Shown: positions 16,445 to 45,382, counted from the stretch's first letter. The stretch is DNA of 45,682 bases from Gemmatimonadota bacterium (GCA_039586365.1 JBDHKN010000031.1:1-45682); one strand, 5' to 3'. Translations and numbers: made by a program. Notes: generated by a model from the sequence alone, not told the origin.

Positions 16445-16621
16445 GTATCACAGACTCGGTGCCTCTTCGCAGTATCCCGGAACGCAGCAGTTTCATTCAG
16501 GCACACACCCACCTCTATCAGCAGCCCACGCGCTGCATCTCATTCCGGCAGGACCACACCTCTATTGGCGGTCCACCTATTCGCGACATGCCTCGGCGCT
16601 TTCGTGGTGTGCACGGCACAA

Positions 16622-16642
16622 CGCCCGGTGCGGGACCGGGCG
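16622..16642 (-). terminator. Putative intrinsic terminator hairpin downstream of the DUF4440 gene
   Basis: Perfect 8-bp stem CGCCCGGT-N5-ACCGGGCG, 30 bp after the stop at 16672; U-tract weak. Confidence 0.45.
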
Positions 16643-16671
16643 GTGTGGTTCCGCAGGGAGTCGGCGAGTCG

Positions 16672-17151
16672 TCACATAGCCTCTGTGGCTGGCGGTGGTA
16701 CCGCACTCCACATGTCGCGCCACAGCTTCCATGAACCATCCGGCTGCTTTCGCAGCAGAACGAGCCACGTGCCTTCCTGCTCGCCTGCTTCTCCCTCTCC
16801 CCTCGGCGTCCAGCTTTCGCTGTAGGAGAGTCGCAGGACCCCAAGATCTCCGGCCACAACGATCTCATCGGCTTGCAGCGTGACTTGGACGTCGTTCTCG
16901 CCGAAGAATGTCTCAAGCATTGCGCGAGTATCCTGTCTGTTCATGACTGCGTCGGAGGGTGGCATGGAGAGGGGATCATCGGCATACAGGGCCAGAGCAG
17001 CTTCGATGTCCCCTGTGTTGTACGCAGCTGCACACTGCTCAACCCAGGTCCTGATTGCCTCGACATCGGGTCCAGTCGTGGTGGCCGTTTCGCCTGGCTG
17101 AGTACAGGCGACCGCTATTAGCAGCACTGGCGGGATAAGCATGCAGCGCAT
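16672..17151 (-). CDS. NTF2-like (DUF4440/SnoaL) lipoprotein
   Basis: Lipobox-like AVAC; AAAYNTGDIEAALALYADD; C-terminal RKQPDGSWKLWRDMWS. Confidence 0.88.
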   Translation of the reverse strand: MRCMLIPPVLLIAVACTQPGETATTTGPDVEAIRTWVEQCAAAYNTGDIEAALALYADDPLSMPPSDAVMNRQDTRAMLETFFGENDVQVTLQADEIVVAGDLGVLRLSYSESWTPRGEGEAGEQEGTWLVLLRKQPDGSWKLWRDMWSAVPPPATEAM

Positions 17152-17230
17152 GTTACCTCCTGGAGTAGGTGACGACGTTGTCGGAGATAGGATGAAGCTA
17201 CGGTCAGGGTCAGGGCATAGTAAGACGGAG

Positions 17231-17392
17231 GCCGAGCCAAGCGGCCCCTTTCACCTAGCCAACCCTAGTACCGAGTTTCATACTAGTACTTGCCCTCACG
17301 GCAACCGTGCTGTGGGGACAGAATGCCGGTGGCCTGTTGTGCCCCGGCGCCTGAGTAGACGCCGTAGCAGGACGCCCGCCCGACGACGAGAC
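17231..17392 (+). repeat. Intergenic repeat family A, full copy
   Basis: Aligns by eye end to end with 43844..44030 (GCCGAGC.AAGCGGCCC...CACCTAGCC...GTACC...TGCCCTCA.GGC.ACCG...GTGGCCT...CGCCTGAGTAGACG.CGTAGC.GGACGCC...CGACGACGAGAC). Confidence 0.85.
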
Positions 17393-17443
17393 GCAAGACC
17401 ACCGAGAGGAACGGCTAGTTGTAGCGTCTGGAGCGATTGCCGC

Positions 17444-18679
17444 ATGGAACTTCATAGGGGTGCTATCGCTGTGCTTCTGGGCACGGCTGCTATTGCTTGC
17501 AGTGACGGGCAGCCTCGCTGGACTGGGACCATGTCTGACAGCGCAGGTGTCACGATCGTGTCAAACACGAACGTCGGTATCTGGGCTCCAGGCGAAGAGT
17601 GGACTTTTGAGGAAGAGGTCCGCATTGGTGTTCAAGAGGGTCAGCCCGAATATCAGTTCGGAAGTGTCCATCGGATCGCAGTCGATTCGAGGCATCGGAT
17701 ATTCGTGTTGGACGATATGGAACAGCATATCCAGGTTTACTCGCCCGAAGGCGTCTACGAACAGACCGTCGGTGGTCGCGGACAAGGTCCCGGAGAGCTT
17801 CAAGCGGCGATGTTCCTGCTAATGGGACCTGGCGATACTGTTCTGGTCCCCGACGGACGGAACCTGCGGTTCAATCGCTACGCCCCGGACGGTTCCGCCA
17901 TCGGCAGTTTCAGGATGCGGCTGGAAGCGGGGCGTCCGATAACGTTCAAGGCGACGGCCTCGGGCGTGATTGCCGGACAGATCCGACTCCCGGCGCTGAC
18001 CGGCGAACGGGCGTCAGAGAACCCAACGGATGTGATCGCGCTCCTGGCGACCGACGGTACGGTCACCGACACCTTGATGACGTTCCCGTCGGGTGAGATG
18101 ATTGGCCCCAGCGGCGTCCGCGTTTTCGCACCTGAGCCGGCCTGGGACCTCACGGATGACTTGCAGCTAGCCTTCGGTGTCACTAGCGACTACCGCATCG
18201 GGCTGTACGCTGGTGGCCATCTAGAACGCGTCATCAGCAAGCTGTTCGAGCGCCATCCCGTCGGTGACCAGGATCAAGAGGCCATCATGGAAGAGATGGA
18301 GCGGCGCTGGGCTTCTGAGGCGTCCGTCTCAGAAGAGATGAAGGCCCGGCTGCGGAGTAGGTGGAGCTTCGCCGACTTCTACCCCGCGTATCAGCGTCTG
18401 GCATTCGGCCCAGTGGGCACGATCTGGGTTCAGCGAGTGCAGCCGGTCACCGAGCTCACCGAGGAGGAGCTCAAGAATTGGCAGAATGCCAGGGCACCGG
18501 AGTGGGACGTGTTCGACTCCGAGGGACGCTTCCTGGGTGCGGTCATAATGCCCCGGCGGTTCACACCCATGGAATTCCGTGGCGACAAGATCTATGGGGT
18601 GTGGCGCCACGAATCTGGGGTGGAGTACGTGGTCCGACTCCGCGTTGTCGGCGATCTTGGGGAACTAATGGCGCATTAG
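17444..18679 (+). CDS. 6-bladed beta-propeller (NHL-like) lipoprotein
   Basis: ATG 17444 after GGAG; lipobox-like AIAC; DSAGVTIVSN, GGRGQGPGEL and WDVFDSEGRFLG. Confidence 0.85.
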   Translation: MELHRGAIAVLLGTAAIACSDGQPRWTGTMSDSAGVTIVSNTNVGIWAPGEEWTFEEEVRIGVQEGQPEYQFGSVHRIAVDSRHRIFVLDDMEQHIQVYSPEGVYEQTVGGRGQGPGELQAAMFLLMGPGDTVLVPDGRNLRFNRYAPDGSAIGSFRMRLEAGRPITFKATASGVIAGQIRLPALTGERASENPTDVIALLATDGTVTDTLMTFPSGEMIGPSGVRVFAPEPAWDLTDDLQLAFGVTSDYRIGLYAGGHLERVISKLFERHPVGDQDQEAIMEEMERRWASEASVSEEMKARLRSRWSFADFYPAYQRLAFGPVGTIWVQRVQPVTELTEEELKNWQNARAPEWDVFDSEGRFLGAVIMPRRFTPMEFRGDKIYGVWRHESGVEYVVRLRVVGDLGELMAH

Positions 18680-18722
18680 CTCGTATACCGGGTATCTCGC
18701 GGCGCTCGGGGCTTTCTGCTCG

Positions 18723-18777
18723 ACCCAGCTACCCTTGTACTGCACCTCTTACTGGACGCTGCCCTCACGGCCACCGT
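18723..18777 (+). repeat. Intergenic repeat family A, left part only
   Basis: ACCCAGCTACCCTTGTAC...TGCCCTCACGGCCACCGT matches the left half of the 17231 and 43844 copies and ends at the stop of the convergent gene. Confidence 0.7.
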
Positions 18778-18778
18778 A

Positions 18779-19585
18779 CTATAGATGACAGCACCCGGGG
18801 GATTCGCGCGGTGGGGCAAACAGCGAAAGATCGGGGCGCTCGCTGCTTCCGGTGAGTGATACCATTTGATAACGGACTCGGCCGCCCCCCGTCACCGCCC
18901 ACTTCGGGACACGGAGATTCCCGAACCGCTGTAGCGGGCCAAAGCTATAGCTGTACTGAGTCGTCGCCCAGACTACCGGCTCCTTTCTGGTGTTGAGCAG
19001 GATCCAGCCGTGGATCTCCTCGTCTGGACCCCTGAACTCGAGGGCGGTGGTGCCCGGCATGTCCCTCATTGGACCGAACTGGACATGATAGAAGCCATCG
19101 CCTCGGGCAACAGCTCTGGCTAGGCGGTAGATGCTATACGGAGCGCGCTCCATGGCGTTCTCATATGCCTGATCGCTGGCATACGAAAACTCCCCGTCGA
19201 CTATGTTCCAGTAGCGATACTCCGGGCTATACGCTCGGACTCTGCTATATATCTCGCTCTCCATCGTCACGTATGAGCGTGGCCCGGTGAGATCCAGAAT
19301 CTCATTTTCCAGGTAGATGTCAGGACGGTCGAAGATGTCCCACTCATGAACGAAGTGAACACTCTCAAGCTCACGCCAGATGGTCAGACCACCCATCGCT
19401 TCCACCATCTCCTCAGCGTCCGCGATGGCGGCAGGATCTCCACGGAGACCAATCAAATCCTGCGCTTCTAGATATGCCGCGGAAGACAAGGGGGCAAACA
19501 GCAGCACGCCCGAAAGGCCGACACAACACCTCACTCCCCGATCCTCCACGAGATTGGCAAACACGGCACCACTCCGCTCATGCAT
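18779..19585 (-). CDS. Hypothetical, probably secreted protein
   Basis: GGAGGAG RBS before ATG; 268-aa ORF with a hydrophobic N-terminal segment; no family recognised. Confidence 0.7.
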   Translation of the reverse strand: MHERSGAVFANLVEDRGVRCCVGLSGVLLFAPLSSAAYLEAQDLIGLRGDPAAIADAEEMVEAMGGLTIWRELESVHFVHEWDIFDRPDIYLENEILDLTGPRSYVTMESEIYSRVRAYSPEYRYWNIVDGEFSYASDQAYENAMERAPYSIYRLARAVARGDGFYHVQFGPMRDMPGTTALEFRGPDEEIHGWILLNTRKEPVVWATTQYSYSFGPLQRFGNLRVPKWAVTGGGRVRYQMVSLTGSSERPDLSLFAPPRESPGCCHL

Positions 19586-19758
19586 GACTCCTCCGGCACG
19601 TCGCGCACTGCGATCGATACGTCACACGCGCCATTCACCTGCGATCACCGGTAGGCGATGGAAGATATTCGGAATCGGGCGCGCGGCCAGCTCAGCACAC
19701 TTGATCCTCGACCTGCTCACATTCGTTAGGGCAATTCGTAGACTACCCGCCTTCCTGG

Positions 19759-19878
19759 GACACCCGCCCGACGACGAGACCACGAGGCCATGGCCGGTTT
19801 TCGAGAATCTCTGCGTTTAAGGGTGGTGCCTCGTAGCCTCTGTCGATTACCTTGCGCAATCACCGGTACCGGAGGTCC
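19759..19878 (+). repeat. Repeat A right-end motif joined to repeat B (~96 bp)
   Basis: GACACCCGCCCGACGACGAGACC (19759-19781) followed by a segment differing from 29061..29157 at about 13 of 97 positions (manual count). Confidence 0.85.
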
Positions 19879-19883
19879 GGGCC

Positions 19884-21937: not shown

Positions 21938-22179
21938 TGATCCGGACCGCGGGCTGCGTTGTTGGATTTAGACGGCTAGGTGGGTGATCTGCGTGCGCGC
22001 CAGCGCACGCAGCCCCCCGCAAACGACGGTGGCCTTCGTGGCTCCACCGCAACGAGCAGCCGCAGCTCCTGCCGCGACCGCCTGAGTTCAATTCACGCGA
22101 GCGGTAAGGAAGAGCCTCGAGCTCCGCCCTGGGCAACGAGAGAAGGTGCGCGTTTCCCTTGATCTAGATCGTCTCGTAC

Positions 22180-22578
22180 CTACATGACCTGACCAGCTTT
22201 GTCGGTTGTCTTCGGCTGTGCGTAGAAGTACCCGAATCCGAGGGCAAGCAGGAGGTAGATCACGACTGTCGACCAACCAAGGGCATTCATGACGCCGCCG
22301 AGTTGACCCATCAGGGATACGATGAAACCGATGCCGTCGCCAACGAACAGGGCGAGCAGAATCGCACGACGCGTGTCAGAATCGGGTGCGTTTCTGGCGG
22401 TCCACGTCAAGACGGCAAAGGCCAGGAGCGCCGCTCCGAACAGTCGCGTCACATACTCCAGCTGAGGAGTTATCTCAGGACCGTATGCTGACGTGATCTG
22501 ACCGGGCACCACGATGAATCCGACGCCAAATACCGCTGCAACCAGAGCGTTGACAACCATGAGTGTGCTGAGCTTCAT
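22180..22578 (-). CDS. Small 4-TM membrane protein
   Basis: Four hydrophobic segments; AAGGA upstream of the ATG. Confidence 0.8.
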   Translation of the reverse strand: MKLSTLMVVNALVAAVFGVGFIVVPGQITSAYGPEITPQLEYVTRLFGAALLAFAVLTWTARNAPDSDTRRAILLALFVGDGIGFIVSLMGQLGGVMNALGWSTVVIYLLLALGFGYFYAQPKTTDKAGQVM

Positions 22579-22631: not shown

Positions 22632-22698
22632 CTCGTCGTCGGGCGGGCGTCTCCTGCTGCGTCATGCTACGGCGGCGTGGGCACGAAGGCCGCCCGGC
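22632..22698 (-). repeat. Intergenic repeat family A, right part, inverted
   Basis: Reverse complement reads GGCGGCCTTCGTGCCC...CGCCGTAGC...GACGCCCGCCCGACGACGAG. Confidence 0.7.
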
Positions 22699-22900
22699 CT
22701 TTACTACCCGTCAATTAGCTGGTGAACGACAAGATAGCTTGCAGCCGGGGACACGGGTCAGCAAGAGGTACCAGTAGTCGGCAGGCCGCGCCCTCGCTTT
22801 CCTGTTGTAGTTGAAGCAGTTTTCGTTGCGTCAGCCGCCAGTTTGCACTGCAGACTTCAGCGCGCCGTCCACGTCGACGTCTCTTCCCTGGGATAACGCA

Positions 22901-25234: not shown

Positions 25235-25365
25235 GGCAACTCTGACGATCCCGCATGGTCTTGCACCTTCCGCTCCGACAGACCGAAGGCTGCCTGCGAT
25301 CGCTGGCAGAGAAGCTCGAATTGAACATCCCGATTCCGGATCACACGACTCTGTCGCGGCGGGTC
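25232..25365 (+). pseudogene. IS5 family (IS903-like) transposase internal fragment
   Basis: EATLTIRMVLHLPLRQTEGCLRSL...IPIPDHTTLSRR matches the LPLRQTEG...PDHTTLSRR motif; no DDE domain follows. Confidence 0.8.
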
Positions 25366-25666
25366 AAGACGCCTGGTGAGATCCGTTTCGTGCGAACATC
25401 GCGAGGGAAACGAACACCGGTAACATCGGCCGAGCCCAATTGACGCTGGGGTGACGCAGCCGAATCAGGGACTGTAGCTGCGCGCATTGACACCAACAGA
25501 GGTTGGAGAAGCTGCACCCCCTGTTGCGAATGCCGGAGGGTCAGCGACGGCGAGCACGATCGAACAAGGCCTTCATCAAGCTGCTGGACAGCTTCAGGTC
25601 CGACCCACATACTTGGCGGAGGCACGAGAGAATCCTACCACGATCCTAAACCACAAGTTGATCCCC

Positions 25667-28988: not shown

Positions 28989-29060
28989 CGACGTCTGATT
29001 CCGAGCGCGGCGTTCCGCAGCCGGCGGAGCCAAGCGGTTCGGCTCATCTTGCGGTGGCCG

Positions 29061-29157
29061 CGAGACCATGGCCGGATTTCGAGAATGTCTACGTATTGGA
29101 GGTGGTGTCTCGTAGCCTTCGTCGATTACCTTGCGCAATCAACGGTACCGGAGATCC
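29061..29157 (+). repeat. Repeat B, second copy
   Basis: Near copy of 19783..19878; preceded by the repeat A fragments GAGCCAAGCGG (29027) and CGGTGGCC (29052). Confidence 0.85.
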
Positions 29158-29207
29158 TGGACGGGGGCATTGAACTTTTTTCGAAACCAGCGGTTGGGGG
29201 GCAAGTG

Positions 29208-31222: not shown

Positions 31223-31224
31223 CC

Positions 31225-32865: not shown

Positions 32866-32919
32866 TCAGTGGCGGTCAGCGAGCACAGTAGTCAGACGGT
32901 TTGGGACATCATCGGTCAT
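32866..32919 (-). pseudogene. Ser/Thr kinase 5' stub (MTDDVPNRLTTVLADRH*)
   Basis: AAGGGGG RBS; resembles the N-terminus of the kinase fragment at 35156..35425. Confidence 0.6.
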
Positions 32920-33122
32920 ATTGCATGACCCCCTTGTAGCGTGAGCGACAGCGAATGCGACCCCAGCGAGATCGCGAGCCCAGGCGAGCGATCGAGATGA
33001 ACCCGCGACCCCCTGAGGCCCATTCGGTTCACAACACATAGCAACTACGACATCATCCCGGCATTTCTGGGCTTTGAACGTTGGCAACGACATCTTGCCG
33101 TACTTCATATTGTGCTTTGCCC

Positions 33123-34133
33123 TCACTTGCGCAGGAACTCTCGCACGGCAGAGTTGAATCTCTCCGGTTCGCACCATGGCGCTTGGTGCCCGCAATCGTT
33201 GGTCAGCCGGAGTGTGCGTGCCCCCAAGAGGCCGGCGAACTCCAGGGCGGGGCCCGGCGTCACAAGGTGGTCAGCGAGGCCCACGACGATGAAGGCCTCC
33301 GCCTGAACAAGAGACGCAGCCTGCTCCAACGAGCCGGCGAACGGCGCGGCAACGTCGTGGCCAATCATTGCGTGAAGCTGACTGCTGAGATCATATACCC
33401 TCTCTTCTGTCAGAGACGCCATCTCCAGTCGAGCTCGGGCACTTGGAAGGCTATCGCGGGGAAGGACACGCGACTGGTAGTCCGGGCCTCCCATCAAGAA
33501 GTACAATCCCTCTCGCAGCGCAGCTGGCGGCTGACAGCGGCAATCGAGAAACCAATCCAGAATTCTGAGCTCCATTTCCCAGAGGACGATGTCATAGACT
33601 GCGAGACGAGGCGAGCCGACAACTGGGACGATCTTCTCCGCGAACTCCGGATAACTCACGGCCCATTCAAACGCCTGCATGCCTCCCATCGATATTCCGA
33701 GAACTGCGTTCAGTCGGGAGACCCCGAGATACTCAGTGAGAAGCCTGTGTTGGTGCCGCACCATGTCGCGGATCGTGATACTGGGGAATGCAGCTCCACT
33801 TTGTGCAGTGCTGTTCGATGGCGATGATGAGACACCATTGCCGAAGGCGTCGACCACGATTACGAAGGACTTCGCAGGGTCGACCATGCCGTCCGGCCCG
33901 AGTAGCGAGAGAATTTGCTCGCTGGTGCCCCCGAACCAAGTCGGGAACAGCACAGCGTTCGAGCGGTCGGCACTGAGACTACCTACGCTGCGGTAGCCGA
34001 TGCGACAGTCCTCGATGACATCCCCGTTCTCAAGCTGGCAGTCACCCATCTCGGCGAACTGGAGCTCCTGCCCATCCAGACCTGCTGAGGCGGTGAAAAT
34101 GAGAAGTGCGGTGGAAGGCAGCAGTCGATGCAT
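33123..34133 (-). CDS. Alpha/beta hydrolase, homoserine O-acetyltransferase (MetX)-like, with signal peptide
   Basis: IGYRSVG..NAVLFPTWFGG, FPSITIRDMV, GISMGG nucleophile elbow and CGH. GGGAG before ATG 34133. Confidence 0.88.
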   Translation of the reverse strand: MHRLLPSTALLIFTASAGLDGQELQFAEMGDCQLENGDVIEDCRIGYRSVGSLSADRSNAVLFPTWFGGTSEQILSLLGPDGMVDPAKSFVIVVDAFGNGVSSSPSNSTAQSGAAFPSITIRDMVRHQHRLLTEYLGVSRLNAVLGISMGGMQAFEWAVSYPEFAEKIVPVVGSPRLAVYDIVLWEMELRILDWFLDCRCQPPAALREGLYFLMGGPDYQSRVLPRDSLPSARARLEMASLTEERVYDLSSQLHAMIGHDVAAPFAGSLEQAASLVQAEAFIVVGLADHLVTPGPALEFAGLLGARTLRLTNDCGHQAPWCEPERFNSAVREFLRK

Positions 34134-34217
34134 CGTCAGGCTCCCAAGGATCGAGAACAGCGGCGTGCGGAGACCGAGTGGTCTCCAGTTAGGGTCCAAG
34201 GACCAGTCAGCGCACGC

Positions 34218-34277
34218 ACGCTCGATGGTGTAGCGGTCGGCGAGGGCCTTGGTGAGACGGTCGAACACGTCAGTCAT
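34218..34277 (-). pseudogene. Ser/Thr kinase 5' stub (MTDVFDRLTKALADRYTIER)
   Basis: ATG overlaps the end of the upstream gene (ATGACTGA); reading frame continues without a stop into the 33123..34133 hydrolase. Confidence 0.8.
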
Positions 34278-35013
34278 TCCCACTACCCCCGTGAAGTGCC
34301 GCCCAGATCGGTTTGCCAAAGGCGAACACACAGGCCCATCCGGCGATGATGCCGGGCAGGAAAGCGGCCGCGAATAGGTACATCTCTCCGGTATGACTCG
34401 CCTCCTTCCACACGAAGAACGCCCCCGCGGGCACGAAGAGGACGCAACTGAGCGCCACCAAGATGAGGCCAACGGTCTGCTGGGAGGCCAACAGCAACAC
34501 TCCGATCAGGAGGCCGGTGAGCAGTACAGCGGGGATGGCGACATGCCACTCGATAGCGTAGCGGTACATGACGACGAAGAGGAAGAGGCCCAGCGCAGAA
34601 GCGATGTTCAGGATGATGGTCCAGCGCACGAGTCCCATGCGCGGACCGCTCCAGTCGGTGGCGGCCCGGCCCTCGTAGCGCTCGAACATGGCCCGGCCTG
34701 GCAGGCTTACGAGTAGCACAACCGACGCAACCAGGGCGACGGTTTGCTGTGCCAGGGGCGCTCCTGCGGGTAACCCGAAGGTGAGGACGAAGGCCCAGGG
34801 GAGCACCGCGAACGCGCCGGCGAGCGCTAGCCACCGGCTCCAGTACTTCTCCATGGCCAATCCGATGATCGTAATCCCGAGCGGGATGAGGAGCAGCCCA
34901 GTCGCCAGTACCAGTCGCGGGTTCACTCCGTATGACCCCCGCTCGAGTGTCAGGATGAGGCCGCCCAGCGCGAGAAGCGCCGAGATCGCCAGGGTCTTCC
35001 GCAGCATGATCAT
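34270..35013 (-). CDS. Hypothetical polytopic membrane protein
   Basis: About eight hydrophobic segments in two similar halves. Confidence 0.75.
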   Translation of the reverse strand: MIMLRKTLAISALLALGGLILTLERGSYGVNPRLVLATGLLLIPLGITIIGLAMEKYWSRWLALAGAFAVLPWAFVLTFGLPAGAPLAQQTVALVASVVLLVSLPGRAMFERYEGRAATDWSGPRMGLVRWTIILNIASALGLFLFVVMYRYAIEWHVAIPAVLLTGLLIGVLLLASQQTVGLILVALSCVLFVPAGAFFVWKEASHTGEMYLFAAAFLPGIIAGWACVFAFGKPIWAALHGGSGND

Positions 35014-35155
35014 ATCGCGCTAGACCTCGTACAGCGACGTCGATATGTTGTCCGACGAGCTCCCCCAGGGCAACTAGCCGAACCCGAGGCTTCGACTACG
35101 AGGCTACGACTACAAGCGCCGATCCGCCCGCCCCTACGCTCCACCATGACCAGAT

Positions 35156-35425
35156 TCACTCAGGCAACTCGAGCGGCGCGTCCGAGTCGTAAAGGGGTAG
35201 GATGCGAGGATGGTGCAGGTTGGCAGTCACCTTGATCTCTTGCAGAAACCGCTCCGAGCCGAGGGTGGCAGCCAGCTCGGGCAGGAAGACCTTGAGGGCA
35301 ACCTTGCGATCGTGCTTGAGATCGTGCGCCAGATAGACCACGGCCATGCCACCTCGGCCGATTTCGCGTTTGATCGTGTAGCGGTCGCCTAGGGCTGAAG
35401 TCAGCCGCTTCAAGTGATCAGTCAC
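35156..35425 (-). pseudogene. Truncated Hanks-type Ser/Thr protein kinase (N-lobe only)
   Basis: DRYTIKREIGRGGMAVVYLA..KVALKV..ERFLQEI..LHHPRILPLYDS followed by a stop; no HRD or DFG motif. Confidence 0.9.
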
Positions 35426-35538
35426 CAGGTGTCATCCGCGTTGATCCGCACCTATTCGCGTGGGCTCGGTTACTGGCTCAACATTCAATCTGTCCATTGT
35501 TGACCGAACGCACTAGGAGGTACTGGGGAGGTAGAGCC

Positions 35539-35567
35539 TTGAGCGAAGTCGTGAATCTAAATAGTAT
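35539..35567 (+). promoter_or_regulatory. Putative sigma70 promoter of the TA operon
   Basis: TTGAGC-17 bp-TAGTAT, overlapped by the short palindrome AGTATTACT (possible operator). Confidence 0.55.
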
Positions 35568-35584
35568 TACTAGTAGGAGTAAGA

Positions 35585-35830
35585 ATGAGGCTGACAGACA
35601 TGAAGATCACGACCAAAGGCCAGGTGACTATTCCCGCTGCCATCAGGGAAGAGCTGGGATTGCTGCCCTACACTGAGGTGGAGTTCGAAGTCACCGGTGA
35701 TGCCGTGCTGATGCGAAAGGTCGCACAGAACCGTCGCAGGGGACGTCGCCTGGTCGATCATCTGCGGGGCCGCGGCAGCGTGCGAATGTCCACAGATGAG
35801 ATCTTGAAGCTTACCAGGGACAGACGGTGA
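35585..35830 (+). CDS. vapB: AbrB/MazE/SpoVT family antitoxin
   Basis: KITTKGQVTIPAAIREELGL; alternative start at 35600; overlaps the toxin start (GTGA). Confidence 0.92.
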   Translation: MRLTDMKITTKGQVTIPAAIREELGLLPYTEVEFEVTGDAVLMRKVAQNRRRGRRLVDHLRGRGSVRMSTDEILKLTRDRR

Positions 35831-36231
35831 CCGTTGTACTCGTAGACAGCAGTGTCCTCTTGGACGTGCTGACGGAGGACCCAGCGTGGTACGATTGGTC
35901 AGCAGAAGCGCTCGAGGCACATGCGGAGTCGAGTGTGTTGGCCATCAACCCGATCATCTATGGCGAGGTGTCGATTCGATTCGAGCGGATCGAAGACGCG
36001 GAGGAGGCTCTTCCTCCGGATCTCTTTCAGCGAGCGCATCTTCCGTGGGAAGCTGCCTTCTTGGCGGGCAAGTGCTTCGTCCGTTACCGGAGGAAGGGTG
36101 GTGTGCGACGCTCACCGCTTCCGGACTTCTACATCGGTGCACACGCGGCTGTGCGTGGCTGGAAGCTGCTTACAAGAGATGCAGCTCAATACCGCACCTA
36201 CTTTCCGGGCCTCGCTCTGGCGTCGCCGTGA
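35827..36231 (+). CDS. vapC: VapC (PIN domain) toxin
   Basis: VLVDSSVLLD, IYGEVS, PLPDFYIGAHA and LLTRD. Confidence 0.93.
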   Translation: MTVVLVDSSVLLDVLTEDPAWYDWSAEALEAHAESSVLAINPIIYGEVSIRFERIEDAEEALPPDLFQRAHLPWEAAFLAGKCFVRYRRKGGVRRSPLPDFYIGAHAAVRGWKLLTRDAAQYRTYFPGLALASP

Positions 36232-36281
36232 CAGGCGGTCCGAGCAGGACAGTACGGAAAGTGTGAGACGCAGCATACACC

Positions 36282-36358
36282 CCTCCTTGCGGTTTGGAGT
36301 GCGACTCCGAGACAAGTGGGCTATCGGCGGATGGGTCAGAAGACGGCTAGGTGAGCCC
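36282..36358 (-). repeat. Leader repeat C (GACTCCGAGACAA core) feeding a gene stub MLRLTLSVLS
   Basis: Similar to 38906..38981 over ~75 bp and to 38138..38170. Confidence 0.75.
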
Positions 36359-36391
36359 TCACGGCATCTGTGAAGTTCTGACACCAACGCC

Positions 36392-36581
36392 TGTACCTGA
36401 CTCCATACTAGACGTTGCCCTCAAAGGCCACCGTGCTAAGGAGACATTAGGAGGGTCACCCGACTCATAGGAACCGGTCACCGGCAGCCAGGCCGCTGTG
36501 TAGACGCCACAGTTAGAAGCCCTCCCGACGACGAGACCGCACCGGTGGCCTTTTGTGCCCCGCCACCAGAGTAGACGCCGT
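36392..36581 (+). repeat. Intergenic repeat family A, rearranged copy with expanded hairpin loop
   Basis: Arms AAAGGCCACCGTGC (36423-36436) and GCACCGGTGGCCTTT (36539-36553) enclose ~100 bp that includes GTAGACGCCACAGT...CCCGACGACGAGACC. Confidence 0.8.
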
Positions 36582-36599
36582 TGGTCGACGCACAGGGTG

Positions 36600-37964
36600 T
36601 TATTGGTCAGACTCTTCGCGCTCGACGATGCCGAGCGGCGGCCGGTCCCTCCAGGCACCGCGTGTGAAGTCTGGCACGTCGATGGGTCGGCTGCCCCGTG
36701 CGATCGAGCGCTCGGAGAGCCCGGAGATGGCGCTCCACGCCGCTCCGTCATAGACGTCTTGGTCGGTCGGCGTCCCGTTACGCAGACACTGGATCAGCCG
36801 GTAGTCCTCGATGTAGTCCATGCCGCCGTGCCCCGCGCCCTGGGAGCGCTCCTCCAGCGCCGCCCAGATCGGGTGGTCGAACTCGGCACGGTAGGCCTCG
36901 AGATCCTCCCACTGGTGTTCCGGGCTCCGCCCCTCGATGTGGACCTTTTCATCGGGATATCGCTGCACGAGCCCCCTGGCGCCCTGGAGAGTGAGCTTGC
37001 GACTGTAGGGTCGCGGCGAGTTTGTGTCGTGGACGATCAGGATGGTCTGACCAGCGAGCGTCCGGATCAGTGTGCTCACCACGTCGCCCAGCGCGTACGA
37101 CTGCCGAGCCTCTGGGCTGTCGCTCCCGATGTGCTCCGCTGCCCAGCGGTTCAGCCCGCGTGAGTTGCTGCTCATGGAGACGAGGTAGTCGAACCGGTTG
37201 CCCCGGTTCACGTTCATGTACTGGGCAACCGGACCGAGTCCGTGGGTCGGGTAGAGGTCGCCGTTCCGCCGAATCGAGTGCTTAACGCGCCACCGACCCT
37301 CGTAGAAGTCGGTGAGTTTGAGTACGCGGAGGTCGTGCAGATACCCGCACTCCGCGTGCAACAGATCGCCGAAGAGCCCGTGGCGGACCATGTTCAGGAT
37401 CATCATTTCGAGGCGGCCGTAGCAGACGTTCTCCATCATCACACAGTGGCGCTGCGTCCGCTCCGCCACCTCCACGAGCTGCCAGCATTCCTCAACGGTG
37501 ACGGCCAGCGGGACTTCCGTGGCCGCGTGCTTGCCGCTCTCCATTGCCGCCACGCACACCGGGGCGTGCCAGTCCCACGGGGTCGCGGTGAATACGAGAT
37601 CGAGGTCGTCTCTCTCGCACAGGCGGCGGAAGTCATCGGGGCCTCGCGAGTAGCCCACCGGCTCGGGCTGCCCGGCCTCGGCGACGAGCTGCTGCATGCG
37701 CTGCACCTTGGCGGCCACGACGTCGCAAATCGCCTTGATCTCGACGCCGTCGATTCGCAGGAAGTTCTCGACGTGGCTCGACCCCTGGTGACCGACGCCG
37801 ACGAACCCCATGCGCACCGTCTCGAGCGGCGGCAGCGCGAGGCCCGCCGCCCCAGATGCGGGGCTGGGTACACCGGCGCTCAGTCGCGGAGCGGTGAGGG
37901 CGAGCCCGAGGCTCCCCGCCGCGGCCGTCTTGAGGAACTCCCTCCGACTGTATGGATCACGCAT
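36600..37964 (-). CDS. Gfo/Idh/MocA oxidoreductase, GH109 alpha-N-acetylgalactosaminidase-like, Tat-exported
   Basis: SRREFLK Tat motif; GFVGVGHQG, ATPWDWH, ATEVP, MMENVCY, YPTHGLGP and GHGGMD. Confidence 0.9.
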   Translation of the reverse strand: MRDPYSRREFLKTAAAGSLGLALTAPRLSAGVPSPASGAAGLALPPLETVRMGFVGVGHQGSSHVENFLRIDGVEIKAICDVVAAKVQRMQQLVAEAGQPEPVGYSRGPDDFRRLCERDDLDLVFTATPWDWHAPVCVAAMESGKHAATEVPLAVTVEECWQLVEVAERTQRHCVMMENVCYGRLEMMILNMVRHGLFGDLLHAECGYLHDLRVLKLTDFYEGRWRVKHSIRRNGDLYPTHGLGPVAQYMNVNRGNRFDYLVSMSSNSRGLNRWAAEHIGSDSPEARQSYALGDVVSTLIRTLAGQTILIVHDTNSPRPYSRKLTLQGARGLVQRYPDEKVHIEGRSPEHQWEDLEAYRAEFDHPIWAALEERSQGAGHGGMDYIEDYRLIQCLRNGTPTDQDVYDGAAWSAISGLSERSIARGSRPIDVPDFTRGAWRDRPPLGIVEREESDQ

Positions 37965-38028: not shown

Positions 38029-38133
38029 TCAGCCCGCAAACGCGGCCTTCTGTTCCCCGGTAAGTTCCATGGTGGCGTGCTGCCAGACAACCAAGAAGAC
38101 AATGAGCACGGTGGCAAGTACGAGACGGCGCAT
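38029..38133 (-). pseudogene. 34-aa stub resembling the signal region of a secreted/lipoprotein gene
   Basis: MRRLVLATVLIVFLVVWQHATMELTGEQKAAFAG*, preceded by GGAAGGA and leader repeat C. Confidence 0.55.
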
Positions 38134-38240
38134 GGATCCTTCCTAGCGGTTTGGGGCGACTCCGAGACAAATCGGGCAGCGATGCATCAACAGGCCCGAC
38201 GCCTATTTGCTGTGGCGTCGCCCAGACACGCTGTCGGAGT

Positions 38241-38900
38241 CTAGCTGCCCGATCCACCGCTTGTAGGCAGTCGAAAGGCGAGACCACCATGAAGCACGAA
38301 GGACACGTCCAATGGATCTCTGACGCCGAGGTTTACGCCAGCGGATGTCACGACACTCAGCGTACTCGTCAGATAGAAGTCCAATCCCACAGTGCCGTTC
38401 ATTACTAGAGAGTTGACCGAGTTTCCTTGGTCAACAAGAGTCACACCATCACTGGGACTGAATGCCGTGTGGGCTATCCCCACACCCAAGGCACCATTGA
38501 CGGTCAGGTTCACCGGTGTGGCCGGCACAAAGTTGCCGATACCGACGATGAGCCCGAGCTGATAGTAGTCAGCCTGCCCGATCACAGCGTCGGTATCGGC
38601 GACCTTCATGTCTGCGCCGAGTGCAGCCAACCCTTGCACACCAAAGGAAATCTTCCCGAGGTGCGGACTGGGTGCGCTCGAGACGGGGAAGATAGCCCGG
38701 CCTCCGTAGGTCAAAGCGGAATTCAGCTCAACGCCGGTGGTTGATGCATCAGCATTGACAACTTGTGCGACCTCATTGCGAGAAAATCGCCAACCAAGGT
38801 GAACCTCGAGTTGTGTGACCCAGGCAGGATGTTGGGCGAGGCTCTGGGCTGGTACCACCACGGTGGCTAACAGCAGAACTGAAGCAGGGGTTGGACGCAC
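38241..38900 (-). CDS. Putative outer-membrane beta-barrel protein
   Basis: GGAGGG before GTG; signal peptide; alternating amphipathic strands ending ...GGLAFRL. Confidence 0.7.
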   Translation of the reverse strand: MRPTPASVLLLATVVVPAQSLAQHPAWVTQLEVHLGWRFSRNEVAQVVNADASTTGVELNSALTYGGRAIFPVSSAPSPHLGKISFGVQGLAALGADMKVADTDAVIGQADYYQLGLIVGIGNFVPATPVNLTVNGALGVGIAHTAFSPSDGVTLVDQGNSVNSLVMNGTVGLDFYLTSTLSVVTSAGVNLGVRDPLDVSFVLHGGLAFRLPTSGGSGS

Positions 38901-39195
38901 GGTTCCCTCCTACGGTTCGGGAGGGGGACTCCGAGACAACTGAAATATCAGCGGATGGATCAGAGGATGGAATGGTGAACCGATTGGCAACTACGCTAAG
39001 CTACGACCTGGAGTTGGAGAGGGCCAGGTTGAGCTTAGTGATTTGGGGCCGCAAATTGACGCGGCTACGGCGGATTGAAGCGGACGCAGGCGCGCAGGTC
39101 GGCACTACGACAGGCGTCCCTCGGGTCCCACCGTGCGATTGACGGGGAGCGGGCTCGGCGAGAGTGAATGACTCACACCGTCGGACCGCGAGCCC

Positions 39196-41311: not shown

Positions 41312-41341
41312 TGTGGTCCTCTGTTGGATAGTCCTGTGGTC

Positions 41342-41413
41342 GGCACCGGCTTCGCGCTCGATGGTGTAGCGGTCGGCGAAGGCGGCCTTGAGGCGATCGA
41401 GGGCGTCAGTCAT
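41342..41413 (-). pseudogene. Ser/Thr kinase 5' stub (MTDALDRLKAAFADRYTIEREAGA)
   Basis: GGAGG RBS; in frame (34 codons upstream, no stop) with the creatininase start. Confidence 0.8.
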
Positions 41414-41466: not shown

Positions 41467-42363
41467 TCAGTCGGATTCGACATCTCTGAAGAAATCGAGT
41501 ACAAGCCGGTTGAACTCCTCCGGTTTGTCCATGTTCATGATATGACTGGCGTCCTGCAGCACCACCTTCGTTGCGCCATCGATTGACTCCTCCATGAGAT
41601 CTGCGATCTCCTTGCAGGCATCTATGTCGTACTCGGCAGTCACTACGAGCGTAGGCACACTTATTTCACCGAGGCGCCCCCCGGCTGACGGTTCGATGTC
41701 GGTCCACGGGTCGAGGTGAGTCATATGCCACCACGAATACTCACGGTTGAATGACTTCAACCTGTTCACCGTGGTGGTGTCCAATTGTGCCATTGCAGGG
41801 TCGTCGTATACCACCTCAATGACAGCGTCTGCGCCTCCCTCTTCGAGTGCAGATGCCATCTCTGCGAACATGTCGAATAGCTCCTGTACGGCTGGGCTGT
41901 CGTAGCCATTCACCCACGGTCCGACCGACACGAGGGAGCTTGCCATCTCCGGGTGCATCAGCACGAAGTCCACTGCGATACCCGAGCCCATCGACAGACC
42001 GACAATGTGAGCCTTCTCAACTCCCAAATGCCGCGTCAGTGCGGCTAGGTCATCGTGGTGGGTGTAGGGCTCACCTTCGACCGGCAGATTCGATTTGCCG
42101 AACCCACGAACATCGTATCGAATCGTGCGGTGTCTCCTCGCAAATACCTCGAACTGGTCATCCCAGTGTCGTCGGTCAGCGAAGTTCCCATGCACTAGAA
42201 CCACTGGGTCACCCGATCCAGCGACCTCGTAGTACAGTCGCGTCCCGTTCACCTCTGCGAAGCCGGTGTCCAGTTCTGACGTAGCTTCCTCAGATCAGCC
42301 TCCACAAGCGGTGAGCAACAACGCGAGGGGAACCACGACGGACGGAATCCAACGCAACCTCAT
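41467..42363 (-). pseudogene. Alpha/beta hydrolase lipoprotein interrupted by an in-frame TGA at codon 23 (catalytic part 41467..42252 intact)
   Basis: AGGAGG-ATG 42363 gives MRLRWIPSVVVPLALLLTACGG*SEEATSELDTGFAEVNGTRLYYE; VHG, DVRGFG and GLSMG motifs follow. Confidence 0.8.
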
Positions 42364-42479
42364 GATTGCCTCCTGACGGCGAGTGGGAAGAGGCGACAAT
42401 GATCTGTCCATGGATACGGGACGGATGGCGGTCCTCAGCAATCACCTTCCGCTACCGATGCTGCTGTACCTCGGGATGC

Positions 42480-42956
42480 TCACCCCTCAGCTGCTGGCAA
42501 CGGGTCGTTCGAGTTCCAGATATCGAGCGTGATCAACCAGGACCCATCCGGTTGCTTCCTGAAGATGTGCACCCACTTGCCCTCCATAGCGACAGTGTCG
42601 GCACCCACCAGAAGCGAGAGCGAATAAGCACCTCTCGCGTAAGCGAGATCACCGTAACCGTCCACCTCAACAGGAGCCGAGGAATACGACAGGACTGGAG
42701 GAGTCGCTTCGAGATGGGCCACTTCCGCTGCCCGTCCCTCGTAGATTGCCCCATTCGGTGGCATGAAGACCGCATCAACGGCGTACGACTCTGCAGCAGT
42801 GGAGAAGTCCCCTGCGAGTGCAGCCTCGCCGAACGACTGAACTACACCCCTGATCGCTGCGACATCTTCATCGGACAGCGGTTGAGGCTGTGGCCGACAA
42901 GCGGTCAAGGTGATAGCGAACGGGAGGAGAATGAAAGGAACCCGTTGTAACCTCAT
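42480..42956 (-). CDS. NTF2-like (DUF4440/SnoaL) lipoprotein
   Basis: LTAC lipobox; LSDEDVAAIR and RKQPDGSWLITLDIWNS. Confidence 0.9.
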   Translation of the reverse strand: MRLQRVPFILLPFAITLTACRPQPQPLSDEDVAAIRGVVQSFGEAALAGDFSTAAESYAVDAVFMPPNGAIYEGRAAEVAHLEATPPVLSYSSAPVEVDGYGDLAYARGAYSLSLLVGADTVAMEGKWVHIFRKQPDGSWLITLDIWNSNDPLPAAEG

Positions 42957-43124
42957 GACTGCCTCCTAACGGCGAGTAGGGAGAGGCATAGACTAACGTG
43001 GCAAGTCTGTGGTCAAGTACGGGAGGCTGCAAGGGCCTCGCGGCGTCGGTGGAGTTCTGACGGCTTGACGTTGCTTTGACGCCTGGTAGAGAACTTAGGC
43101 ACGTAGCGCTACAAGGAGGCAGCC

Positions 43125-43835: not shown

Positions 43836-43843
43836 CCAAAGAA

Positions 43844-44030
43844 GCCGAGCAAAGCGGCCCTATACCCACCTAGCCGACTCTTGTACCTCACTTCACATTA
43901 GTACCTGCCCTCAAGGCCACCGCGTGTACGGACCAACACGCCAGTGGCCTTTTGTGTCCCGCCGCCTGAGTAGACGTCGTAGCTGGACGCCGTAGACGCC
44001 ACAGTAAGACGCCCGACCGACGACGAGACC
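43844..44030 (+). repeat. Intergenic repeat family A, full copy
   Basis: Homologous to 17231..17392 with ~22 extra bp of GACGCC sub-repeats; hairpin AAGGCCAC-C-GCGTGT-loop-ACACGC-CA-GTGGCCTT at 43913-43951. Confidence 0.85.
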
Positions 44031-44088
44031 GACTGACCGCCGACGAGCCAATGCAGCGACCTTTGTTCACCCAACAGGATGAAGAGCC

Positions 44089-44733
44089 ATGAAACGAGTC
44101 ACGATTCTCTCACTTACAGCGCTGGTCGGCACGGCAATGTTCGGCCCTGTTGCCACCGAGGGACAGGCCACCAAAGTCCTCCTGATCGTGCCGGAGGACA
44201 GCTCGGCCGATCTGGGGTACATGCTCTCAAAGGAAGTGGGCGTCATGACAGACCTGCTTGAGCAGGCGGACTTTAATGTGGCTGTAGCTACAGCATCGGG
44301 TGAGCCACTCGTTGCTGAAGAAACGACCCTCACGCCCGATCTCAAGTTCAGCGATGTGAAAGTGAGCGACTATGCTGGTATCGTAATGCCGTGCCTAGCC
44401 ACCGGCGACGACGCAAGATCGCTGCCGCCTGAACTTGCAGCGATGGTCCGGGAAGCCGTGGCTGAGGGGAAACCAGTGGCTGCTCAAACCGGCGGGATAA
44501 TCACACTTGCCACGGTGGGGGTTCTGTCCGGGAAGAAGTACGCCTACGTGGAGGAGTGGGCGGCAGAGGTACCCGAATTTGAAGACGCCGTCTATAGTGG
44601 TAACGGTATTGTCCAGGACGGGAACATCATCACTTCTGCTGTCTGTCCCTATGCGGCGAGGATGCTTGGTCTGCAGGACGGTACTACTGGGCTGATCCAG
44701 GCACTGATAGCTCAGATGGGGGGTCAAAAATAG
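44089..44733 (+). CDS. DJ-1/PfpI family protein with signal peptide
   Basis: KVLLIV, LTPDLKFSDVKVSDYAGIVMP, GKPVAAQ and IVQDGNIITS. Confidence 0.82.
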   Translation: MKRVTILSLTALVGTAMFGPVATEGQATKVLLIVPEDSSADLGYMLSKEVGVMTDLLEQADFNVAVATASGEPLVAEETTLTPDLKFSDVKVSDYAGIVMPCLATGDDARSLPPELAAMVREAVAEGKPVAAQTGGIITLATVGVLSGKKYAYVEEWAAEVPEFEDAVYSGNGIVQDGNIITSAVCPYAARMLGLQDGTTGLIQALIAQMGGQK

Positions 44734-44807
44734 TTCAGGCCGTTACGCCTCCAGACGATATTGAATCTCACGTCGTCAATGTCCAACGCAACAAGCGGAG
44801 GTACACC

Positions 44808-45305
44808 ATGTTACGGCGTCTTACACTCTCGGTTCTATCGATGTGTCTCGCTGTTTCCACTGGCACGCTCGGCCAGCAGCGGGGTTCGCTGGCTGGACGG
44901 TACTCGATGGTCACTCTGTCAGCGGACACGCTTCGCTCTCCAGATGGTGGTGCCGTAAACCACGTCACTTACGCGCAGAACTTCCTTACCGACGATCCAA
45001 ACAACCCGTTCAACAACACCAGTGCCCGTTGCGCGGGAACGTTGATCATGTCGGAAGAGGACACGCCCATTGCGGGGGGTGGTGGCTGCTACGCCACGGA
45101 TATGGATGGCGATGGGTATTGGTTTTGGTGGTATCTAGAAGAGGCTGGTACGCAGAACTGTCCGACCATGTGTGGAGCCTGGGGCTCCTACAACGGCCAC
45201 GGCAAGTTTGAGGGTGTGTCGAGCAATGGCACCTTCACGGTCGTCGCGAGCTTCCTGGATGGTTCCATGATAGGTACCTCAGAGGGTACTTACGAAATCA
45301 AGTGA
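44808..45305 (+). CDS. Secreted hypothetical protein (beta-rich, four Cys in the mature part)
   Basis: GGAGG RBS; signal peptide; C..DMDGD and G.GKFEGV motifs. Confidence 0.75.
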   Translation: MLRRLTLSVLSMCLAVSTGTLGQQRGSLAGRYSMVTLSADTLRSPDGGAVNHVTYAQNFLTDDPNNPFNNTSARCAGTLIMSEEDTPIAGGGGCYATDMDGDGYWFWWYLEEAGTQNCPTMCGAWGSYNGHGKFEGVSSNGTFTVVASFLDGSMIGTSEGTYEIK

Positions 45306-45344
45306 AAGCTGAAACGTTCGGCTGTTCTCTAGCGAATCGCATGT

Positions 45345-45373
45345 GCCCCGGGCGTCTCGCGGGCGCTCGGGGC
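45345..45373 (+). terminator. GC-rich hairpin (terminator/REP-like)
   Basis: GCCCCGGGCGTCT-CGC-GGGCGCTCGGGGC; related sequences at 18688-18714 and 10907-10928. Confidence 0.5.
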
Positions 45374-45382
45374 TTCACGGGG

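Follow-up and report, generated by a model that had tools for sequence, protein, structure and literature searches.

The part of the window that follows position 16,500 is, on balance, probably an accessory patch of a kind that recurs many times in a Gemmatimonadota genus; in such patches, single genes stand behind reusable promoter/5′-leader modules (the window being the whole 45,682-nt stretch of DNA that was analysed). The module set consists of leaders A, B, and C and a kinase-type promoter, and the cargo is mostly exported proteins. Sequence comparisons indicate that the modules are multi-copy, oriented, and located upstream of the ribosome-binding site (RBS), and that dozens of unrelated gene families are found behind leader A. 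The first-pass annotation had proposed a candidate cassette-like shuffling system at 16.5-45 kb; a self-contained system there is not supported, as the repeats are putative promoter/5′-leader modules that occur on 19 contigs and are tied to the downstream gene. The labels A, B, and C used here may not match the repeat A, repeat B, and leader C of that annotation.

The enrichment of multi-copy repeats in the spacers after ~16.5 kb is confirmed. An intragenomic repeat match is present in 17 of the 22 spacers longer than 100 nt after 16.4 kb, whereas the same criterion gives 416 of 2098 spacers genome-wide and 23 of 270 for the four largest contigs. No such repeats had been noticed in the first 16 kb, but two of the five spacers in the first 16.4 kb also have a match. 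Nor is the early part a core whose order is conserved: in the genome of a relative, G006, the genes from it are dispersed over four places, and 10913-11935 has a duplicate on contig C21. Gene orientation is mixed within the window and, as expected from the first reading, the gene order is not conserved across relatives, being lost in five congeners. Synteny is also eroded outside such patches, with blocks of 2.5-9 kb, and homology with the relatives (congeners are 66-93% identical) mostly stops at gene ends. Independent contigs from three studies, one run of which may be the source sample and with runs X5-X15 left out for their small shares, span five window junctions with 0-6 differences:

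30970-31311, junction bridged by independent contigs
33678-34409, junction bridged by independent contigs
34975-35715, junction bridged by independent contigs
36488-36729, junction bridged by independent contigs
38104-38956, junction bridged by independent contigs

This bridging argues against an assembly chimera. Circles and alternative junctions had also been considered, and neither a circle nor an excision joint was found among the independent contigs spanning the junctions. Three further features of the window are a toxin-antitoxin pair and two transposase pieces:

35585-36231, + strand, VapBC-type pair by Pfam: MazE_antitoxin (AbrB/MazE-like) at 35585-35830 and PIN toxin at 35827-36231
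25242-25394, + strand, transposase fragment (DDE_Tnp_1_5) with many copies in the relative G002
45338-45682, + strand, terminator-like hairpin (45338-45382), followed from 45383 to the contig end by the first part of an insertion sequence (HTH_Tnp_1)

The VapBC module is present inside the region as reported; it has other neighbours in G002 and looks like one more passenger of the patch.

Leader A (repeat A) is a predicted oriented promoter plus 5′ leader and not an att-like spacer. It features a promoter-like box, a hairpin, GACGCC repeats, and a conserved 22-mer. The box has the consensus CT(A/T)GC...CA..(C/A)T and is probably a promoter; a strict promoter-like motif lies within 140 nt of 20 of 86 leader A copies, with ~0.03 expected. 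The CCGACGACG core is near-invariant in 38 copies that were found via a different motif. The number of GACGCC repeats varies from 1 to 6, with direct repeats at 12-13 nt spacing, and a peptide reading was rejected because the 12- and 13-nt units break any frame. Leader A is strand-biased, with 7.5% T versus a median of 20% in upstream windows. Its T-poor GACGCC-repeat core appears to sit in the 5′ UTR, where its likeliest role is that of a regulatory site bound by a protein. Conservation is lower in the arms than in the interior, both boundaries are fuzzy, and there is no sharp edge behind the core. Leader A does not resemble a MITE or non-autonomous insertion sequence in that it lacks well-conserved terminal inverted repeats and sharp ends. 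The window contains about ten pieces of leader A, whole or broken, where about eight had been counted; they are listed here together with the insert in one of them, and the upstream hairpin is seen at 18688-18715 and again at 45338-45382:

17255-17392, + strand, whole copy preceding a beta-propeller lipoprotein-like gene at 17444-18679 (Pfam DUF5128)
18688-18794, + strand, upstream terminator-like hairpin (18688-18715) and leader A 5′ half (18730-18794), interrupted by an inverted insert
18779-19691, - strand, gene together with the ~105 nt upstream of it, matching a cassette in the attC array of contig C13 at 86% identity, with no attC kept
19738-19780, + strand, leader A 3′ core in the same orientation as the 5′ half
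22021-22050, + strand, fragment of the leader A 5′ arm
22632-22765, - strand, whole copy before a membrane-protein gene at 22180-22578, a pairing kept in relatives
36385-36591, + strand, broken and permuted pieces in the order promoter part (36385-36449), 3′ core (36488-36537), 5′ arm (36542-36591)
43870-44030, + strand, whole copy before a DJ-1/PfpI gene at 44089-44733

The pieces at 18730-18794 and 19738-19780 probably represent one copy, which is split by the gene that has a copy in the C13 array. The window copies are 83-87% identical over 120-170 nt to leader A copies on contigs C18, C10, and C107, and whole copies are mutually ~70-88% identical.

The genome of the window (G000) contains 35 leader A loci, oriented and upstream of a gene start, and G002 has 49 core matches. 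Leader A was present in each of the 7 congeners and in 11 of the 125 genomes sampled from the family, and in none of 175 genomes outside the family. Mapping the repeats genome-wide revealed that they are clustered (another locus lies within 5 kb for 16 of the 35, where the random mean is 2.0), but they are spread over the 19 contigs and not confined to 16.5-45 kb. Head-to-tail leader-gene arrays are found on contigs C129 and C145 of G002 and on C10 and C18 of G000. For copies in other genomes, an RBS-led ORF follows within 170 nt in 61 of 79 cases. The gene upstream of the leader is co-oriented in 14 cases and divergent in 9. The 77 downstream proteins fall into 67 families, and a 19-gene cluster of non-paralogues shares the leader. 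Signal-peptide-like starts, called with our own hydrophobicity rule on our own gene calls, are found behind leader A in 15 of 20 genes versus 44 of 167 local neighbour genes (Fisher p 3e-5), and in other genomes in 45 of 61 versus 25% of G000 genes; kin and paralogues in these counts are not independent.

The export bias, the location between promoter box and RBS, the strand bias, and the variable repeat number would also suit a regulon, in which selection keeps leader A primarily as a DNA or RNA element that regulates envelope and exported proteins in cis, with an incidental patchwork. We consider this improbable. Leader A was not found in 114 of the 125 sampled family genomes, no NusG paralogue tracks it, and covariation does not support an RNA fold. 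Rfam gave no relevant match at E up to 1. The closing stem is 71% paired, with 17-188 of 500 shuffles reaching the measures, an alternative stem is at shuffle level, RNAalifold gave -1.4 kcal/mol, and arm pairing is -14.7 kcal/mol for the copies' own arms versus -14.3 ± 0.25 kcal/mol for swapped arms. These pairing, shuffle, and RNAalifold tests thus lent no support to an RNA structure. A short-motif search of the assembly found neither SRP RNA nor 16S rRNA. Even for a regulon, 150-nt homology cannot arise by convergence, so leader A must have been copied between genes.

Comparison of the copies indicates that they are recombinational mosaics of one another. Among 17 whole copies 1994 triplets were evaluated, and the 14 best-per-child triplets were permuted; in 7 of the 14, including the window copy at 43870, none of 40000 permutations reached the observed MaxChi, which uses ungapped columns only. 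A PHI-like test, on sets that included false copies, gave p values of 0.016 for G000, 0.022 for G006, 0.31 for a third mixed set, and 0.99 for the pooled copies. Additionally, alignments with relatives indicate that homologous genes carry different leaders in different genomes, as is the case for three window genes. The DJ-1 gene has homologues in G002 and G006 with another promoter allele and without the repeat core, which are too divergent for an empty-site reading; three distant loci from the DJ-1 protein search were left out of this comparison. The gene at 29208-31028 has different upstream sequence in three relatives leftwards from 29170-29175, and the alpha/beta-hydrolase gene at 33123-34133 carries a kinase-type promoter instead in G002 and in one X4 contig. 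Homologues of leader-A-led genes within G000 lack the leader in 7 of 14 cases, which may be paralogues, and keep it in the other 7, a counter-point in that the leader here travels with its gene over long times.

The proposal that genes are captured or swapped by recombination at the repeats is thus partly sustained: the copies are mosaic and the leaders of three window genes differ, but from these we infer, and did not observe, gene movement via crossover within the repeat. No single gene-moving event with an in-repeat breakpoint was found among the relatives and independent contigs. Conversion without relocation of any gene could account for the mosaicism, and identities of 70-88% are low for efficient RecA recombination.

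Leaders B and C and the truncated 5′ ends extend the patchwork beyond leader A. All seven gene-start stubs previously noted are present, four of the kinase type and those at 31086, 36276, and 38133. Leader B, as labelled here, has three copies (36281-36357, 38138-38170, and 38905-38981), and leader C has two clear copies, which are 85% identical; a third was not found in the window.

19780-19881, + strand, first copy of leader C, immediately following the leader A core
29058-29160, + strand, leader C copy 2, before the beta-lactamase-fold/TPR gene at 29208-31028
31086-31225, - strand, duplicated leader and first 16 codons of a membrane-protein gene, direct repeat of 34966-35105
34966-35105, - strand, parent copy: leader and start of the membrane-protein gene at 34270-35013
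32869-32934, - strand, kinase 5′ stub 4 with an in-frame stop, 80% identical to the start of a full kinase on contig C4
34217-34277, - strand, kinase 5′ stub that shares the reading frame of the alpha/beta-hydrolase gene at 33123-34133
35156-35425, - strand, kinase 5′ stub with ~83 codons of kinase sequence
41350-41413, - strand, kinase 5′ stub in frame with a creatininase-family gene
36247-36357, - strand, leader B and cut-off start (36276) of a DUF4440/SnoaL-type exported protein
38029-38170, - strand, leader B and 34-codon stub (38133) of a DUF4440/SnoaL-type exported protein
38905-39031, - strand, kinase-type promoter (38996-39031), then leader B, before an unrelated gene at 38241-38900
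42304-42394, - strand, head of a DUF4440 gene (leader, RBS, and signal peptide of the lipoprotein type) sharing the reading frame of an alpha/beta-hydrolase, with TGA at codon 23

The duplicated leader and its parent are 93% identical and 3.88 kb apart. The segment at 42304-42394 is 70% identical to 42897-42987 and 80% identical to the start of a DUF4440 gene in G004. Even where the mature parts of DUF4440-type genes cannot be aligned, their leader and signal peptide are 81-88% identical, and in 5 of the 7 pairs this shared head stops between +54 and +58 nt. The kinase stubs end at varying positions between nt 61 and 249, with 4 of 10 at nt 61-64 (p ~0.004, post hoc). One shared internal deletion behind the four short kinase stubs was rejected, being supported for one of the four.

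These scattered ends, the internal deletions in the kinase copies on contigs C63 and C37, the transposase pieces, the loss of homology at gene ends, and the leader kept in 7 of 14 homologues are compatible with passive decay of an island, where leaders spread only when duplicated or transferred along with their genes, deletions fuse an old promoter to the next gene and leave stubs, and the mosaics reflect conversion without gene movement. This account is doubtful, as 67 unrelated families behind one homologous leader, tandem leader-gene arrays, export bias over local controls, and clean chimeras represent more order than debris alone predicts.

For an integron or CALIN, one would look for an attC site behind each gene, an IntI integrase adjacent or elsewhere in the genome, and mostly co-oriented genes. 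G000 has a true attC array on C13, with 20 matches to an HMM made from that contig's own attC sites. The same HMM gave no match on the window contig, and a RYYYAAC...GTTRRRY motif scan of the window gave none either. A profile search for tyrosine recombinases (PF00589) found nothing on this contig. These searches agree with the earlier reading, which had found no attC consensus and no recombinase; the window also holds the two transposase pieces. IntI (TIGR02249) is above cut-off only in G003 and G006 of 8 genomes, without leader A nearby; G000 gave no such match, but at a completeness of 86% it may have an IntI that escaped assembly. Integron or CALIN membership was rejected, since attC, IntI, co-orientation, and a repeat directly after the upstream gene are all lacking. 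A decayed integron array, like an assembly chimera, is hardly credible: it would account for the gene common to the C13 array and for VapBC, and IntI-mediated insertion outside att sites is described in 10.1101/2022.09.11.507474, but the window has no attC versus 20 on C13 and its gene orientation is mixed.

A dedicated site-specific system would use the 22-mer and GACGCC repeats as core and arm sites of a putative trans-acting recombinase that inserts genes behind the promoter. The direct repeats of leader A, spaced 12-13 nt apart, look like the arm sites of integrases, and the near-invariant core, the patchy multi-copy distribution, the copy split by an insert, and the kinase stubs ending at nt 61-64 all fit. 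Such a system is nonetheless quite unlikely. No recombinase recurs within 1.6 kb upstream of leader A copies. G000 has 11 PF00589 matches, whose sequences look XerC/D-like, phage-like, or like tRNA-island integrases; one is 1 kb from a leader copy on C74, but none recurs across loci. IS110 is present in 7 of 10 leader-rich versus 5 of 10 leader-free genomes and a serine-recombinase domain in 4 of 10 versus 2 of 10, in sets picked by the leader feature itself; these two and the NusG paralogue were rejected as partners, as none tracks the leader. The IntI genes of G003 and G006 have no leader nearby, the core has no sharp boundary behind it, and leader A was absent from the viral contigs, phages, and plasmids searched. 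A tRNA-island link was rejected with 1 of 35 loci near a tRNA, as was a reverse transcriptase partner, the single one in G000 being on a contig without leader A. A check for REP/REPIN palindromes beside a Y1 transposase (RAYT) gene gave one weak Y1_Tnp match on C56, a contig without a leader A or T-hairpin copy.

For the preferred reading of accessory patches with reusable modules, the leaders and the conserved 5′ ends of the kinase and DUF4440 families would offer 60-170 nt of homology for RecA-type crossing-over or conversion, with a partner on the same chromosome or in DNA taken up from kin. A ComEC-family gene is present. The other end of the incoming gene would be joined illegitimately or by deletion, placing a new gene behind a ready promoter, sometimes with a signal peptide, and leaving 5′ stubs, direct repeats, and split or permuted leaders as by-products. 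Host recombination would suffice in this scheme, and a dedicated recombinase would not be required. In natural transformation, homology-facilitated illegitimate recombination combines one homologous anchor with one illegitimate join. It would yield the order leader, stub, and new gene. A more speculative and rather unlikely extension is that leader A anchors a selected, integrase-free gene-capture system, a 5′-anchored counterpart of the integron. The promoter, the tunable GACGCC-repeat leader, and sometimes a signal peptide would form an expression-and-export head onto which extracellular cargo is grafted by in-head recombination, and the core might be read by a putative trans recombination protein or by an RNA-binding protein coupling mRNAs to export.

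The closest known cases are putative mobile promoters and neisserial repeat arrays. The patch resembles an integron or CALIN in its gene-sized units alternating with a repeat, its toxin-antitoxin passenger, and the gene common to the C13 array, but it differs in the missing attC, the lack of IntI in G000, mixed orientation, and a leader located 5′ of the gene with a promoter-like box. Putative mobile promoters (PMPs) are homologous sequences of at least 80% identity over at least 50 nt upstream of non-paralogous genes (Nijveen, Matus-Garcia, van Passel 2012, PMC3575422). They are shared across genera and occasionally higher taxa, have no Rfam match, and mostly form families that are pairs (PMC3575422). 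Leader A has the same upstream homology, with 83-87% over 120-170 nt before non-paralogous genes, promoter activity being predicted from motif and position, and likewise no Rfam match. Unlike PMP pairs, it recurs at 35 loci of a single genome, with 49 core matches in G002, is built as a modular mosaic, forms tandem arrays, and shows an export bias. Bentley et al. 2007 (PMC1797815) describe neisserial intergenic mosaic elements (NIMEs) in dRS3 arrays as non-coding mosaic repeats beside surface- and exported-protein genes and propose that they favour the exchange of genes, whether through homologous or through site-specific recombination. As described there, the arrays keep their synteny from strain to strain and diversify the alleles resident there, and dRS3 measures 20 bp, has terminal inverted repeats, and is used by a known phage recombinase. 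Leader A is similar in its mosaic repeats and exported-protein association, but it is an oriented promoter-leader before unrelated, non-syntenic genes and no recombinase was found for it. A literature search covering mainly openly accessible papers found no earlier description of leader A.

The movement of promoters from one gene to an unrelated one, and the way in which genes gained by horizontal transfer come to be expressed, have been stated as open questions (PMC3575422). Leader A is an undescribed, strongly strand-biased 5′-leader motif from a little-studied sediment lineage, and its tens of uses per genome, mosaic structure, export bias, and arrays make promoter reuse measurable and testable.

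Past about 16.5 kb the window had been described as stand-alone genes in mixed orientation whose spacers contain shared repeats and cut-off gene starts (stubs), and this description was borne out. The genes are single units after 16.4 kb, and 17 of the 22 spacers longer than 100 nt in this part have a repeat match elsewhere in the genome (G000), compared with 416/2098 spacers genome-wide, 23/270 on the four largest contigs, and 2/5 in the first 16.4 kb. All seven stubs named in the first-pass annotation exist, and they comprise four kinase starts, two DUF4440-type starts, and a second copy of the first 16 codons of a membrane-protein gene. An eighth start, also DUF4440-type, is in frame with a hydrolase and features a TGA at codon 23. 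The kinase 5' stubs end at nt 61–64 in 4/10 cases, which is a post hoc observation. Three copies of leader C, another reused module, had been claimed; two were found and the third was not. The G000 assembly (5.44 Mb, 132 contigs) is 86% complete and the window is the entire contig C54; gene and signal-peptide calls were made with our own scripts and are approximate. Estuary and marine-sediment runs hold DNA that is near-identical to the window, and five window junctions are bridged with 0–6 differences by contigs from four runs in three studies, one of which runs may be the source; among the contig pieces listed, none covers the whole stretch.

Several other features of this DNA were observed. 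Positions 2–5814 hold two tandem PD40-propeller paralogues (65% identity over 1.4 kb), the complete one ending in an amidohydrolase domain. The gene for an RRM RNA-binding protein at 10913–11935, with its long upstream region, has a duplicate on contig C21 (77–90% DNA and 98% protein identity). The contig ends at 45383–45682 in the start of an insertion sequence, of which 112–113 nt are 99% identical to two sites in another genome, G002, and this match suggests a recent between-species transfer. Ser/Thr kinase genes are greatly expanded in G000, about 90 loci having a shared promoter that stands back to back with leader A at several loci.

Leader A, the most frequent repeat of the first-pass annotation, was mapped genome-wide as that annotation had proposed. 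An HMM gave 46 matches, representing 35 loci on 19 contigs of G000, and these are clustered: 16/35 lie 5 kb or less from another locus, compared with a mean of 2.0 and a maximum of 10 over 2000 random draws. Clustering at tRNAs was not seen, 1/35 loci being near a tRNA. From its 5' side, leader A features a promoter-like box, often with a terminator-like hairpin before it, then a variable hairpin, a GC-rich arm, one to six GACGCC repeats with 12–13 nt spacing, and a conserved 22-mer, which is followed by the RBS and the start codon. In other genomes an RBS-led ORF is located behind 61/79 copies, mostly 36–68 nt past the 22-mer. A strict promoter motif lies within 140 nt of 20/86 copies, where about 0.03 would be expected. 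The gene located 5' of leader A has the same orientation in 14 cases and is divergent in nine, as would be expected of a promoter but not of an attC site. The sense strand of the core is 7.5% T, and equally T-poor windows make up 0.24% of upstream windows. Among 45 copies recovered by the 5' motif alone, mostly from one assembly, 38 contain the 22-mer with three or fewer differences, and CCGACGACG is nearly invariant in the 22-mer of these 38. Leader A has no Rfam match, and an RNA fold was unsupported by covariation tests. Taken from its sequence, leader A is a putative promoter, and its core may have a regulatory role. Other repeats in G000 include several families of 7–10-nt tandem repeats located 5' of housekeeping-type genes on many contigs (for example C27:41782–41854, C65, C43), one family having 54 members, and a 143-nt inverted-repeat family at C131:37384–37526 and nine other places, none in the window.

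Leader A is present in 7/7 congeners. Core matches number 22 in G000, 49 in G002, 16 in G006, two in G004, and three in G020, and the reversed control gave 0. Among sampled genomes it was found in 11/125 within the family and 0/175 from other families, and 78 of 80 database loci examined (of 87 sharing the repeat) are from Gemmatimonadota. The exact 22-mer also occurs in three Longimicrobiales records, one Latescibacterota record, and one Bacteroidota record, which may be transfers or binning errors. Viral contigs, phages, and plasmids gave no match. Copies can be densely packed, with five co-oriented in 3 kb on contig C129 of G002 and five in 4.3 kb on its contig C145.

The 77 proteins downstream of leader A fall into 67 families. 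A Pfam scan of 48 leader-led proteins revealed propellers, TonB plugs, peptidases, lectin folds, and leucine-rich repeats among them, and 24/48 had no Pfam family at E 1e-5. For export, 26 leader A copies in G000 were considered, with a called downstream gene for 20. Signal-peptide-like starts were found in 15/20 of these genes versus 44/167 genes within 6 kb (p 3e-5) and 30/111 first-in-unit genes (p 7e-5), both significances being inflated by paralogues and kin. By eye, the lipoproteins led by eight loci (L044, L046, L050, L059, L079, L106, L108, L112) share a similar start before unrelated domains, namely a lipobox Cys followed by Asp and a Pro-rich tether, which is perhaps a lineage-specific export signal.

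Mosaicism was examined in 17 whole G000 copies (1994 triplets, ungapped columns) by permuting the best triplet per child. The top 60 triplets included 14 children, and for seven of them 0/40000 permutations reached the observed MaxChi (Bonferroni 0.05 at the permutation floor); by our reading these overlapping triplets would represent about three events. A further mosaic case was hand-picked, and a PHI-like test had a mixed outcome on input sets that contained false copies. Leaders also differ between homologous genes. A whole leader A precedes the DJ-1 gene in the window, and in G002 and G006 this gene has a different promoter allele that lacks the core; the gene at 29208 has leader C in the window, and three relatives share a different upstream sequence; the hydrolase at 33123 is behind a kinase stub in the window and has a kinase-type promoter in G002 and in a contig from the sequencing run X4. 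Genome-wide, homologues of leader-led genes keep the leader in 7/14 cases and lack it in 7/14. In 5/7 pairs of DUF4440-type genes the leader and signal peptide are 81–88% identical up to +54 to +58 nt, and the mature parts of the same pairs give no alignment.

Comparison with related genomes, another proposed check, determined that gene order is not conserved. Matches to 16.5–45 kb in five congeners are each at most one gene, the longest being 2.3 kb, with different neighbors; the best 40 candidates per genome were scored per search, and misses are possible. Control stretches from two large contigs are co-linear with G006 for about 9 kb and 4.5 kb, and in the first 16 kb of the window blocks of up to 5.8 kb are preserved, yet scattered over four G006 places. 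The patch does differ from the controls, to a moderate degree. In G006, the DNA surrounding leader copies matches G000 mostly in blocks of one gene, which come from many contigs.

The absence of attC sites from the window was confirmed, with 0 attC versus 20 in a canonical array on contig C13 of G000 (locus L193). This whole 20-kb contig is an attC cassette array with no IntI, and fragments of its cassettes are also found on C37, C44, C54, and C124 with 80–89% identity. The window gene at 18779–19585 and its upstream DNA are 86% identical to a C13 cassette, without attC, and the gene is inverted between what are probably the two halves of one leader A copy. Among eight genomes, IntI above the cut-off was found only in G003 and G006, with no leader near it in either, and no recombinase was found to recur in the 1.6 kb upstream of leader copies. 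By the tests for an integron, the leader A system is not one. IntI is described as able to insert outside att sites (10.1101/2022.09.11.507474), which may be relevant to the single window gene that derives from a cassette. The distribution of IS110, serine recombinase, and NusG paralogues does not follow that of leader A in a comparison of 10 leader-rich with 10 leader-free genomes, which were selected by this feature. Related tyrosine integrases are located at C74:1214–2395 and C105:27557–28987 of G000, and the former, which is 1 kb away from a copy of leader A, ends next to a tRNA-like sequence that has three short direct repeats. Short ORFs whose sole match is to the first half of PF07508 (Recombinase domain) occur in leader-rich genomes, on contigs C153 and C274 of G002, in G164, and at C1:1349164 of G006.

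The leaders are reused in a set orientation with a bias toward exported products, are mosaic, and change partners. Host homologous recombination would act at leaders and conserved 5' ends, and genes may move by a crossover inside the repeat; the other end of the moved segment would arise by illegitimate joins or deletions. A ComEC-family gene is present. No earlier description of the leader A element was found in the literature searched. By its sequence, leader A qualifies as a putative mobile promoter (PMC3575422), at unusually high copy number. Neisserial repeat arrays are proposed as drivers of surface-protein gene exchange (PMC1797815), and the leader A system may work like them. The patchwork described for this region is real, and the first-pass interpretation holds in part, but it is not a local cassette system; instead, the region is a single patch in a family-restricted collection of reusable promoter-leaders that extends across the genome.
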